From: Vulcanimicrobiota bacterium
GTDB lineage: Bacteria > Vulcanimicrobiota > Vulcanimicrobiia > Vulcanimicrobiales > Vulcanimicrobiaceae
Assembly: GCA_963699205.1 (NCBI GenBank)
Contig: OY969421.1
Coordinates: 1,624,427-1,688,426, forward strand
Reading direction: 5' to 3'
DNA: 64,000 bases
Shown: positions 2,166 through 4,968 of the stretch, piece by piece
Numbering within the stretch: position 1 is the first letter of the stretch
Layout of the letters: every line of letters starts with the position of its first letter
Program-made: the position numbers and the translations under genes
Notes under the pieces: model-generated
Told to the model about the DNA's origin: nothing
Seen by the model: only the letters and a program-made list of their open reading frames with translations
Databases searched by the model: none

Positions 2166-3657
2166 GTTCTCCTCGGCGCTGCTGCGCGACGCGCTGGTCG
2201 TTGCGTGCGCGGCGCTCCTACTCGCGGCGGCATTTCCAAAAATCGGCGCAGCGTGGCTCGTTCCATTTGGAACGGCGGTATTGTTCTGGACGTGGCAAGG
2301 CGCTTCCTGGAAACGCGCGTTGCTTCTCGGTTGGTTGTTTGGTTTAATTTTTTTTGCCTTAGACTTTGCTTGGGTCGGGCATACGGTCGGACGCTACATC
2401 GGTATCTTCGGGCCGTATCTCGCATTCGGTCCGGCGGTGATCGAGGCGCCATTTGTCGCGCTAGCCGGCGCCCTCGCCGCAGTCGCGTACGCGCACATGC
2501 GGCCGAGCGTCGCACCACTCGGCGCGGCTATCGCGTTCACGCTGGCTGAATGGCTGCGATCCGTCGGACTTCTCGCGGTGCCCTTCGATCAACTCGGCTA
2601 CACGCAGGCCTCGACGCCGCTGCGCGCCTTGGCCGCGTACGTGGGCGCCTACGGCATCACGTTGGTTCTCTGCGCGTTTGGCGCGTATCTGGCCGATGCG
2701 ATCCATCGAAGAACGTTTCGGCCGTTCGGGATCGCAACGATCACGCTGTCGGCCGTTACCGTCTGCGCGTGGATCGCGTGGCCCGCGCGAACCCTCGCGA
2801 CGCCGAGGATCCCCGTCGCGGCGGTTCAGGGCAATATCGCCCAATCGTTTAAGTGGAACGCGTTGCGGTTGGCCGTCGATCGGTACACCCGCATGACGCA
2901 CGCGGCGAGCGTCGCCGGTCCGCGTCTGATCGTGTGGCCGGAGACGGTCATTACTACCGATCTGAACGGGGATCCAGCGCTCCTGTACAGTTTCGAAAAC
3001 CTGGCACGAGAAGCGAACGCTACGATCGTGGCGGGAAGTCTGCGTTGGAGCCCACGAAGAAAACTCTACAACGCGCTCTACATTTTCTCGCCGAACGGAT
3101 CGTACGCCACCTACGATAAGCGCGCGTTGGTTCCGTTTGCGGAATGGTTCCCCGGACGGCGATTCTTATGGTGGCTACCCTACATCGCTTCGCTCAACGG
3201 CGGGTTGAGCGGCGGTCGAACCAACGGCGTATATCCGACGCTCGCGCTGCCGATTGCGCCGCTGATCTGTTGGGAGTCAGCCTTCGCCGATCTTGCCTAC
3301 GCTCAGGTTCGCGCCGGCGCGCAGCTCCTAGTAGTCAGTACCGACGACGCATGGTTCGGAACGACGTCGGGACCGTACATGCACGCTCAGATCGCGCAAG
3401 TGCGCGCGATCGAAAGCGGCGCGTACGTCGTTCGTGCGGCGGCGACCGGGATTAGCGGCATTATCGCTCCGGACGGATCGTGGCAGCGGCGCAGCGCTCT
3501 GGATCGGCAGACGATCGTGCAAGGACGCGTCGGCCCGCGCGTCCCGACGGTATTCTCGAAGATCGGACCGACGCTCGTCATCGAAGCGCTCGCAGCGCTC
3601 TACGCGATCCTCTTGTTGATTCGCCGCGAGTCGCGCCGATCGGAACCCGTACTCTGA
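2164..3657 (+). CDS. lnt: Apolipoprotein N-acyltransferase
   Basis: Multi-TM N-terminal half followed by a CN-hydrolase domain (VAAVQGNI..., IVWPETV, ICWESAF). The ATG at 2164 is preferred over the track start 2113, which would overlap the divergent lipoprotein gene. Confidence 0.85.
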   Translation: MFSSALLRDALVVACAALLLAAAFPKIGAAWLVPFGTAVLFWTWQGASWKRALLLGWLFGLIFFALDFAWVGHTVGRYIGIFGPYLAFGPAVIEAPFVALAGALAAVAYAHMRPSVAPLGAAIAFTLAEWLRSVGLLAVPFDQLGYTQASTPLRALAAYVGAYGITLVLCAFGAYLADAIHRRTFRPFGIATITLSAVTVCAWIAWPARTLATPRIPVAAVQGNIAQSFKWNALRLAVDRYTRMTHAASVAGPRLIVWPETVITTDLNGDPALLYSFENLAREANATIVAGSLRWSPRRKLYNALYIFSPNGSYATYDKRALVPFAEWFPGRRFLWWLPYIASLNGGLSGGRTNGVYPTLALPIAPLICWESAFADLAYAQVRAGAQLLVVSTDDAWFGTTSGPYMHAQIAQVRAIESGAYVVRAAATGISGIIAPDGSWQRRSALDRQTIVQGRVGPRVPTVFSKIGPTLVIEALAALYAILLLIRRESRRSEPVL

Positions 3658-4214
3658 TGACACGCAGGCGGCTTTGGTACAAGCGCTTGGTAATTCTGAG
3701 CGGCGCGCTGCTCCTCACTTGGGTCATCGTCGAGATGGCACTGGCCGGCCGCGGCATTCCGCCAATACCTCGGGGACAGGCGCCGGTCGAACTGCACGGG
3801 GGACAGGTTCTCAACAATCACATCAGCACGCGTTCCTGGAGCTTCGATTACGATCGCGCGCGTCTTTCACCCGATGGAATGAGCGGGAGCGTTGATGGCG
3901 TGCGCAACGGCATCGTCTTTCGCAAAGGAAAGCCATACTTGCGAATCTCCGCGAAACACGTCTCACTCAACCTTACCTCTCTCGACTTCACCGCCGTCGG
4001 CAAGGTCCACATCGAGCGGATCGACGATCCGGAAAACCGCGCGTTCGACACCGACCTGGTCGTCTGGACGAACGATGCGAAGGTTCTTCGCATGGACCAT
4101 CCGAGCTACGTGCACTCGGGCGGTGAAACGCTACGGATCGATAAGATCTCCGTCAACTTCGACGACAGCACGATCCACTTAGGGAAAATCACCGGCGGCG
4201 TCGACATCCACTAA
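3657..4214 (+). CDS. Membrane-anchored periplasmic protein, LptC/OstA-like (tentative)
   Basis: The ATG at 3657 overlaps the lnt stop TGA by 1 nt. MTRRRLWYKRLVILSGALLLTWVIVEMALAG gives one N-terminal TM helix, followed by about 150 aa of beta-rich sequence. The upstream part of track ORF 3480-4214 is Arg-rich and overlaps lnt, so it is treated as artefact. Confidence 0.5.
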   Translation: MTRRRLWYKRLVILSGALLLTWVIVEMALAGRGIPPIPRGQAPVELHGGQVLNNHISTRSWSFDYDRARLSPDGMSGSVDGVRNGIVFRKGKPYLRISAKHVSLNLTSLDFTAVGKVHIERIDDPENRAFDTDLVVWTNDAKVLRMDHPSYVHSGGETLRIDKISVNFDDSTIHLGKITGGVDIH

Positions 4215-4265
4215 CCCTGATTTTGGAGCAAATTTCCGCAGGCTGCCCGCTGCTGCTCTTCACGA

Positions 4266-4440
4266 CCTGAAACGTAAAAGCCGCAGTCACCATCTCATAC
4301 CGGTCCCGAGGCGTCTGAAGCGCCGCGGAGGCACGGATGCCGGGAGCGGCGCTGAAGCCGAGAGCAGCGGAGCACACTGACGTGCTCCGCAAGCGTCCGA
4401 GGGAATGGTATGAGATGGCGACTGAGGCCTAGGTTTCAGG
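4266..4440. ncRNA. Candidate structured RNA or structured intergenic element, family not identified
   Basis: Nested complementarity read directly from the sequence:
- 4266-4273 CCTGAAAC pairs with 4433-4440 GTTTCAGG.
- 4286-4301 GTCACCATCTCATACC pairs with 4407-4422 GGTATGAGATGGCGAC (15/16).
- The helix continues through tandem G-A.
- It ends in a junction with two hairpins: 4319-4326/4346-4353 enclosing GGCA-CGGA-TGCC, and 4367-4375/4382-4390.
The element lies between convergent genes. Confidence 0.35.
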
Positions 4441-4734
4441 CCCCAGTTTTTTCTTTGCTTCCGCGATCAGTTTTTTGACTTTTTGCCCGCCCTTGTGCCC
4501 GATTTCTTCGTAGAAGTCGGAGCCGTACTTTTCCTTGACGACCTTGCCGCCTTTTTGTCCGATCGACTCATAGAACTCTACGCCGTGACGATCGCGCGTC
4601 GCCTTTCCACCTTTTCGACCGATGTCTTCGTAAAAAGTCGACCCGTAGCGGTCGCGCACGGTGTCGCCGCCCTTTTTGCCGGCTTCGCGGACGGACATGT
4701 CGCGCTTTGCCGCATGATCGGATTTTTCAGCCAT
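4429..4734 (-). CDS. KGG-repeat general stress protein (YciG/GsiB-like)
   Basis: Three repeats of the Y-G-x-x-F-Y-E-x-I-G-x-K-G-G type (DRYGSTFYEDIGRKGGK, DRHGVEFYESIGQKGGK, EKYGSDFYEEIGHKGGQ). Confidence 0.8.
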   Translation of the reverse strand: MAEKSDHAAKRDMSVREAGKKGGDTVRDRYGSTFYEDIGRKGGKATRDRHGVEFYESIGQKGGKVVKEKYGSDFYEEIGHKGGQKVKKLIAEAKKKLGPET

Positions 4735-4752: not shown

Positions 4753-4968
4753 TTAAGACGCGGTAGTTTTACGCTTCGGCCGTTGTCCGCCTTTCTGACC
4801 GATGACCTCGTAAAACGATGGACCGTACTTGCTCTTTGTGGCCTCGCCGCCCTTACGGCCAATCTCCTCGTAAAATTCGGAGCCGTATTTTGCCTTCACG
4901 CGTTCGCCGCCGCGGCGACCCGCTTCGCGAACGCTCATGCCGCCGGCCTGACCAGACTCTTGTGCCAT
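4753..4968 (-). CDS. KGG-repeat general stress protein, tandem paralog
   Basis: MAQESGQAGGMSVREAGRRGGERVKAKYGSEFYEEIGRKGGEATKSKYGPSFYEVIGQKGG. The start at 4968 is preceded by GAGAGGA. The track start at 4995 is less likely. Confidence 0.8.
   Translation of the reverse strand: MAQESGQAGGMSVREAGRRGGERVKAKYGSEFYEEIGRKGGEATKSKYGPSFYEVIGQKGGQRPKRKTTAS

Follow-up and report, generated by a model that had tools for sequence, protein, structure and literature searches.

Positions 4266–4440 (+ strand, 175 nt) of the window, a 64-kb stretch of the 2.48-Mb genome of a Candidatus Cybelea bacterium (Baltobacteraceae; Candidatus Eremiobacterota/Vulcanimicrobiota; G000 in our genome set), hold a long closing helix that carries a three-way-junction core. 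The element is one copy of an unclassified structured-RNA family that extends across class-level Eremiobacteria in hundreds of copies. From motif, architecture and distribution we tentatively read it, with somewhat less than even confidence, as a CsrA-binding decoy RNA module dispersed by some copy mechanism, which at this locus also serves as the 3′ end of convergent transcripts.

RNAfold of the region 4215–4450 gives the long closing helix and three-way junction that the initial annotation had drawn, and every helix proposed there is present in the sequence at its coordinates. The + strand reaches a minimum free energy (MFE) of −120 kcal/mol, compared with −87.8 ± 4.6 for 200 dinucleotide shuffles (z = −6.98; 0/200 as low); the − strand reaches −124.9 kcal/mol (z = −6.44). 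An outer stem pairs 4266–4273 with 4433–4440 (CCTGAAAC/GTTTCAGG; 5′ arm CCUGAAAC, 3′ arm GUUUCAGG) in the MFE structures of both strands. The main closing helix, recovered by both repeat search and RNAfold, is an inverted repeat of 28-nt arms (4280–4307 and 4401–4428, 86% complementary) whose sequence belongs to this copy alone; it includes UCCC/GGGA (4304–4307 with 4401–4404). A tandem GA/GA step follows (4308–4309 with 4399–4400), continuous with the P1 5′ strand GGCGU (together 4308–4314), and the partners of both lie at 4393–4400 (GCG-U-CC, with a bulged U4396). Arm A (4315–4357) runs from CU/AG through a further tandem GA/GA, the 8-bp P2 (4319–4326/4346–4353, seen by RNAfold and by covariation) and a GGA/GGGA internal loop to the capping apex hairpin, GGCA-CGGA-UGCC (4330–4341). 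The junction strand CCGAGAGCA (4358–4366; consensus CGAG.GCAG over 44 family copies) leads into arm B, or P3 (4367–4390), a 9-bp hairpin (4367–4375/4382–4390) with loop ACUGAC.

Long inverted repeats are rare in this genome. A census of the whole 2.48 Mb (perfect arms of at least 14 nt within 330 nt) returned just 28, and the two that rank highest with an interior of ~96 nt are themselves family copies, at a transfer RNA locus and between atpG and atpD. The window copy falls below the cut-off because of one mismatch in its arms. Together, the fold z-scores and the rarity of such repeats place the structure far above both chance and genomic background.

A BLAST search of the same genome with the element returned a second core copy (84% identity), which sits in the spacer between tRNA-Leu(UAG) and tRNA-Gly(GCC), with tig and clpP downstream. 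This tRNA-locus copy adopts the same fold (z = −9.4) on a closing helix of wholly different sequence. A covariance model made from the 103-nt core (R1) matched in 43 of 61 close relatives at 0–17 copies each, many at contig ends; we rebuilt it from 44 copies (R2) for a search of 251 genomes across the phylum. R2 matched in 129 of the 251 genomes and 35 of 91 genera, with 1 to at least 16 copies per positive genome, all within the class-level group that holds families f1–f3. The window copy (4303–4405) scores 120.5 bits with R1 and 100.4 bits with R2. The element is thus no single-copy RNA gene: the multi-copy outcome, which the initial annotation had named as one that would count against it, is what we find, with at least seven copies in this genome and up to at least 16 in relatives.

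Forty-two copies were folded with their flanks. The median unit is 153 nt long and its closing helix 33 bp, with few unpaired bases. Closing-helix sequences are unrelated from copy to copy; the ~100-nt three-way junction is conserved. Over 44 copies the 5′ part of the core reads GGCGU-YU-GA, P2 (8 bp), G(G/A)AG-CCA-(N)GGA-UGG-CG(A/G)GAG, P2′, and the 3′ part (C/A)GA(A/G)G.CGAG.GCAG, P3 (~9 bp, loop C-N-(G/C)-G-A-Y), AA-(G/A)CG(U/G)CC. P2 and P3 are wholly replaced in sequence between genera, and their pairing is retained through compensatory change, the kind of support that the initial annotation had looked for in relatives. Standard pairs fill 92.0% of the pair cells in 58 distinct copies, versus 69.2% after shuffling and 30–44% with slid partners (similar in 43 copies); the alignment was fitted to the model and is thus biased toward the structure, the margin being large all the same. 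Compensatory double changes occur at 25 of 28 pairs, including all five of P1 (94.7% paired), seven of eight in P2 and all nine of P3.

One strand is favoured. Compared with the antisense fold, the sense fold (window +) has the greater stability in 39 of 42 copies (mean difference 6.8 kcal/mol), the window copy being one of the three in which the antisense is equally or slightly more stable. Closing stems contain 30 G–U pairs against 7 A–C mismatches, and a U–G pair at the base of P1 is conserved in 39/58 copies. Inside the tRNA cluster, the copy is always tRNA-sense, in ten Cybelea genomes (G000 included). The fold energies, G–U bias and fixed tRNA-sense orientation therefore argue for selection on one strand in its folded, single-stranded form. 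The simplest interpretation is RNA; a strand-specific single-stranded DNA (ssDNA) intermediate is a less simple possibility.

The family has no counterpart among known RNAs, in agreement with the initial annotation. At gathering thresholds, Rfam 15 gave no match in the whole 64-kb window; a permissive search of 4100–4600 returned only a chance match to sbrA (E = 1), and 14 related loci returned tRNAs and chance matches to microRNA precursors. Models of CsrB, CsrC, RsmX, RsmY and RsmZ had no match at E ≤ 10 on the element or at E ≤ 0.5 on the 14 loci. Among the transfer-messenger RNA, RNase P, SRP, 6S, Y RNA and riboswitch classes of Rfam 15, none was relevant, sensitive searches included, and ARAGORN at the tRNA-locus copy reported the flanking tRNAs only.

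The best-conserved stretch of the family is the arm-A apex, G(G/A)AG-CCA-(N)GGA-UGG-CGAGAG, which presents a loop CA(N)GGA(U/G)G on a 3–4-bp stem in 48 of 58 distinct copies. Repeats of the CsrA-sequestering RNA CsrB read CAGGA(U/C/A)G, a pattern likewise matched by these loops. The arm-B loop has the same form, with GGA in about 40 of the 58 copies and ACGA in 14; a GGA-less (ACGA) loop is usually offset by GGA in the other loop, as in four 'type 2' copies of G000. In one copy (L015), counted by hand, the two loops lie ~39 nt apart. The SELEX (in vitro selection) consensus for CsrA is RUACARGGAUGU, with ACA and GGA invariant and GGA placed in the loop of a ≤4-bp hairpin, and one CsrA dimer bridges two sites 10–63 nt apart (PMC7652899), a range that includes the spacing seen here. 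Judged by sequence, the two hairpin loops CA(N)GGAYG, which hold the best-conserved letters of the family, thus look like the CsrA/CsrB binding motif. In the window copy, the apex loop CACGGAUG (4332–4339), within the best-conserved stretch, is a candidate CsrA/RsmE-type GGA site; its arm-B loop lacks GGA, unlike most of the family.

CsrA ranks among the most widely distributed post-transcriptional regulators of bacteria. Antagonists of it made of RNA are firmly established chiefly in Gammaproteobacteria; in other bacteria the antagonist known is FliW, a flagellar protein. The element tracks csrA (PF02599). All 43 element-positive close relatives encode it, and all nine csrA-less close relatives, from four genera, lack the element (Fisher p = 3 × 10−6, phylogeny ignored). 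Across the 251 genomes of the phylum, 122 hold both, 7 the element only, 54 csrA only and 68 neither; the corresponding counts by genus are 33, 2, 29 and 27 (p = 1.7 × 10−5, again ignoring phylogeny). The csrA of G000 (C1:700487–700672, − strand; more narrowly placed at 700487–700636) encodes a 62-aa CsrA with the RNA-binding arginine in an HRAEV motif, and adjoins rpsB-tsf-pyrH-frr, a non-flagellar neighbourhood. Genus g2 alone has FliW (PF02623) and flagellin (PF00669), with both genes flanking csrA; the two are absent from all Cybelea and f3 genomes, in which csrA is retained, and tblastn with the flagellin N terminus gave no match in G000. We therefore set aside a flagellar CsrA–FliW–flagellin context except in genus g2. 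The proteins differ too: Cybelea CsrA has a short proline-rich tail (…HRAEVLAKPRRPPSGRSSAS), and the FliW-linked CsrA of genus g2, at ~96 aa, has a long C-terminal extension.

Because csrA is kept without FliW or flagellin in most genomes of this lineage of uncultured soil and peat bacteria, how CsrA is controlled there becomes a question. Gammaproteobacteria also lack fliW, and small RNAs (sRNAs) take the antagonist role in them (PMC7652899), which makes an RNA antagonist a reasonable expectation here. In the mechanism we propose, the sense strand would be transcribed as the 3′ end of the lnt/LptC-like transcript, stopping at the U-run 4446–4451, and the long helix would shield the RNA from exonucleases. 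The apex loop would bind the dimer of the genome's own CsrA, as would the arm-B loop in most copies. Dispersed units would act jointly as decoys that titrate CsrA, FliW-less in these aflagellate lineages; they would multiply by a copy-and-paste route and be tolerated chiefly at the 3′ ends of genes, at which the palindrome could double as a 3′-end hairpin for convergent genes. In its full form, that the units are RNA antagonists of an 'orphan' CsrA in FliW-less aflagellate Eremiobacteria, working as self-multiplying single-dimer decoys on long protective duplexes, the proposal is possible although doubtful.

The likeness to the CsrB/CsrC and RsmX/RsmY/RsmZ RNAs is one of GGA motifs in hairpin loops in the context CA(N)GGA(U/C)G, of two sites per unit at a spacing (~39 nt in the single copy measured) suited to dimer bridging and of occurrence, with few exceptions (122/129), only alongside csrA. 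Several gene copies per genome are also known for Rsm RNAs. The differences are considerable. Csr/Rsm RNAs carry 5–22 sites, whereas the element carries 1–3 per unit, set on a three-way junction that a ~33-bp helix of the RNA's two ends closes. Its copies are dispersed, turn over fast and lie in either orientation to their neighbours; no GacA/UvrY-type promoter or conserved terminator was seen. It belongs to Eremiobacterota rather than Gammaproteobacteria, and matches no Rfam model in sequence or structure.

A number of observations weigh against the decoy. Nine csrA-positive close relatives lack the element, and the association across the phylum (odds ratio 22) comes from a test that ignores phylogeny. 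Seven element-positive metagenome-assembled genomes (MAGs), 85–97% complete, have no detectable csrA; a search at E ≤ 10 gave nothing above the cut-off in them. Both members of genus g52 are without csrA, and dependence on it is therefore not absolute. The low number of GGA motifs per unit, confined in the window copy to the apex loop, falls short of the five or more sites per RNA that are a Csr/Rsm hallmark, and such multiplicity would need 7 to at least 16 units per genome. Between co-directional genes, 12 units lie antisense and 3 sense, so many copies would need a promoter of their own; a consensus scan upstream found no sigma-70-type promoter (A/T-rich 5′ flanks are seen, and are ambiguous as a promoter sign), and no terminator is conserved across 42 copies. 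The family bears no similarity to the Rfam CsrB/CsrC/Rsm families. Turnover is high: the closest relative, G007, has no tRNA-locus copy, and the ~200-nt hairpin in its equivalent of the window gap is a different, oppositely oriented variant that scores 14.8 bits antisense. Finally, near-identical copies at contig ends (G037, G171 and G104) resemble the behaviour of a mobile element.

The csrA-less exceptions, and the roughly one-quarter of loops that read ACGA, a poor CsrA site, in place of GGA, would suit an RNA that works without CsrA: a trans-acting or scaffold RNA for some other dimeric protein, or a substrate for RNase III, from which a ~120-nt three-way-junction RNA would be freed. The same loop type on both arms would fit any homodimer, and the ~33-bp perfect duplexes are of a length classic for RNase III substrates. 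We nevertheless consider this improbable, as no candidate partner emerged, the GGA context (CA-N-GGA-UG on a short stem) is specific for CsrA and the co-occurrence with csrA is strong.

Copy dynamics raise a further alternative, in which the element is a selfish, non-autonomous mobile hairpin akin to miniature inverted-repeat transposable elements (MITEs), its junction recognised by a transposition or copying machinery, its GGA loops coincidental and its effects on the host incidental. Copy number runs from 0 to at least 16 and shifts fast between species. Copies are almost always intergenic and beside stop codons, and presence is polymorphic at orthologous sites: the tRNA-locus copy is missing in G007, G014, G027, G110, G169, G170 and G181, and one and the same LptC/KGG gap has received independent inserts in both orientations (G000, G007 and G026). 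Genus g2 genome G037 holds at least seven near-identical copies, stems included, and G171 and G104 many near-identical cores with divergent stem middles. Tolerance of G–T pairs on a single strand would fit a strand-specific ssDNA intermediate. Set against this, conservation lies in the centre and variation in the ends (stems), opposite to what is known of MITEs and REPINs; recent G037 copies share stems, and termini are not conserved over the family. Target-site duplications were not seen, nor was a transposase-bearing parent element beside any copy, and Y1/RAYT/IS200-type transposases (PF01797) are absent from all 42 Cybelea and g2 genomes. One copy is held in fixed orientation in a tRNA operon in ten species, the unpaired conserved letters fit an RNA-binding-protein motif, and the element tracks csrA. 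On balance we regard the selfish hairpin as rather unlikely, yet as a serious rival: it accounts for the dynamics of copy number, but neither for conservation at the centre in place of the ends nor for the link with csrA.

Comparison with known repeats follows the same line. REP, BIME and REPIN sequences are short, intergenic, palindromic and multi-copy, often lie at gene 3′ ends and can stabilise the 3′ ends of messenger RNA (mRNA), traits that the element shares; the outer G-rich/C-rich frame of genus g18 copies also looks REP-like. The REP-like repeat contemplated in the initial annotation is thus borne out in being multi-copy and scattered, and not in kind: a REPIN conserves its stem (the REP sequence) and leaves the loop free, whereas here the stem is free and the apex conserved with covariation, and no Cybelea or g2 genome encodes a Y1_Tnp/RAYT protein. 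For the same reason we reject mobilisation by REPIN/RAYT or IS200/IS605 TnpA. Correia/NEMIS (Neisseria), ERIC (enterobacterial) and BOX/RUP (pneumococcal) repeats resemble the element in length (100–200 nt), in forming one long hairpin over the whole unit, in numbering tens of copies per genome and in inserting near genes in both orientations, with co-transcription with neighbours likely. In transcribed MITE-type repeats, too, the long duplexes may be cut by RNase III. As a difference, the Correia/NEMIS, ERIC and BOX/RUP families retain target duplications and conserved terminal inverted repeats, and we know of no transcribed MITE-type family with a conserved internal three-way junction, protein-binding-type loops and class-wide distribution.

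We considered where the stems come from. Insertion of the core into pre-existing palindromes is not supported: empty LptC/KGG gaps contain no palindrome, core-less G-rich hairpins were not found in 22 kb of g18 flanks, and other long inverted repeats are almost lacking in G000. Derivation from target sequence fails as well, the arms of the G026 and G000 inserts being unlike the empty sites. Orthologous copies in the sister genomes G171 and G104 keep one stem (L156 versus L172), and special hypermutation is not needed, because the divergence between species (~70–77% amino-acid identity in a neighbouring gene) suffices to randomise sites constrained by pairing alone. A phage origin was likewise rejected: a single IMG/VR contig has an arm-A-like hairpin alone, without the element. 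On that 10-kb viral contig (IMGVR_UViG_3300042269_000635; L192, 1364–1393) the hairpin reads GCCGC-GGGA-GCCAUGGAUGGC-GGGA-GCGGC, with none of the rest of the junction.

At the window locus, the element fills the gap between the stop codon of an LptC-like gene (3657–4214, +), upstream on the same strand, and that of a convergent gene for a KGG-repeat stress protein (4429–4734, −; stop codon 4429–4431), both from the open-reading-frame list and the gene caller. A second, shorter KGG-repeat gene (4753–4968, −) immediately precedes the first, in the same orientation. As the initial annotation had noticed, the outer stem, through its 3′ arm, does overlap the last KGG codons. LptC-like orthologues occur in 36 of 37 Cybelea genomes, and in most of 30 Cybelea relatives the gap measures only ~10–35 nt and is element-free; some have ordinary AT-rich bidirectional terminator hairpins there. 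The G026 gap holds a family member with a different 30-bp stem in opposite orientation. In G007 (89% amino-acid identity in the neighbouring gene), the variant retains by eye the inner P1, the GAGCAG junction and P3 with a CGGAU loop, its P2 arm being different. Since the gap is mostly empty or differently filled, the window copy is a lineage-specific insertion with its own stem, and the idea of a unique non-coding RNA gene kept at this locus has to be dropped. Insertion also rewrote the C terminus of the KGG protein, which in G000 ends …KKKLGPET-stop with its last codons inside the outer stem; that of G026 ends …LGPENA-stop inside its own, different stem, and empty-gap genomes have other endings (for example, …LGSEKV-stop in G022).

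A promoter/terminator scan called a terminator-like hairpin at 4426–4442 (+) with a T-run after it; this small GC hairpin and T-run (GGCCTAGGTTTCAGGCC CCAGTTTTTT, 4426–4451) shares the 3′ arm of the outer stem and is probably a + strand terminator. G007 has a homologous hairpin and T-run, though its insert differs. At this locus the convergent transcripts probably have their 3′ end in the element as well. Whether it is nothing else, a plain bidirectional 3′-end hairpin (terminator or mRNA stabiliser) of the LptC-like and KGG genes around a functionless core, is a separate matter. The convergent setting, the + strand T-run, the overlap with the KGG stop region and the terminator hairpins of other Cybelea species in the same gap all suit that account, and a GC-rich hairpin with a 3′ U-run between convergent genes is what an intrinsic terminator looks like. 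The element is far larger, however, and its core is conserved regardless of locus; a terminator has no need of a 100-nt junction, conserved loops and 25 covarying pairs. U-tails follow only 2 of 42 copies in sense, the window copy being one, and 4 of 42 in antisense, which leads us to reject canonical termination as the family function, and copies stand inside operons (atpG–atpD, the tRNA cluster) where termination would be harmful. We judge the plain hairpin very improbable. The 3′-untranslated-region stability element suggested initially survives as a possible by-function of the window copy, with its U-run 3′ of the helix, and not as a property of the family.

Elsewhere, the 3′-side neighbour converges on the element in 24 of 30 non-tRNA copies. 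Together with the antisense excess between co-directional genes, an orientation bias of this kind suggests that the sense orientation has an activity poorly tolerated within operons. The other G000 copies, all on contig C1, illustrate the range of contexts. Besides the window copy (1628729, +) and the tRNA-locus copy within its operon (584183, +), sense copies lie 3′ of rpsO (1828856, −) and between atpG and atpD (1777776, +); one lies between a dnaE-like gene and a convergent gene (158765, +), and two are antisense to operons, adjoining tmk (1268401, +) and 3′ of a dnaJ-like gene (1240972, −).

A covarying, many-copy RNA with textbook CsrA-type loops that tracks csrA is a candidate answer to how CsrA is controlled in these bacteria. 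If the decoy reading holds, it would be the first Csr/Rsm-type sponge system outside Proteobacteria, made of dispersed modules in place of one multi-site sRNA. Regardless of CsrA, this is a large unclassified structured-RNA family of unusual architecture, a long helix of free sequence on a conserved junction. It is of value to Rfam, to the annotation of Eremiobacterota MAGs, whose assemblies its copies break at contig ends, and to work on the spread of structured repeats.

Some smaller features accompany the copies. Direct boxes AGCGAGC (5′) and GCGAGCG (3′) surround the tRNA-locus copy in many Cybelea genomes (L009 3140–3325; L174, L177). They are still found in G027 and G181, whose core has been replaced or is missing, and many non-tRNA copies have a GAGCG box on their 3′ side. 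These boxes may signal processing, mark an attachment site or belong to a promoter. In genus g2, a short repeat that forms a hairpin, CACGCGAGCATCGCGTG with its variants, is seen repeatedly at ~100 nt or less from copies of the element (G037; L135–L137, L145–L148). A truncated antisense copy beside a full unit at L160 ~390–470 (G171:C2 near 2126171) keeps the stem, P1 and P3 and has lost arm A; with the variant arm A of G007, it suggests that the arms may be exchangeable modules. G000 also contains two clusters of 14–17-nt perfect inverted repeats unrelated to the element, at C1:1801202–1801392 and 630252–630558 (gtggtggcaacaccgtg..., gcggagtcaaagtc...).

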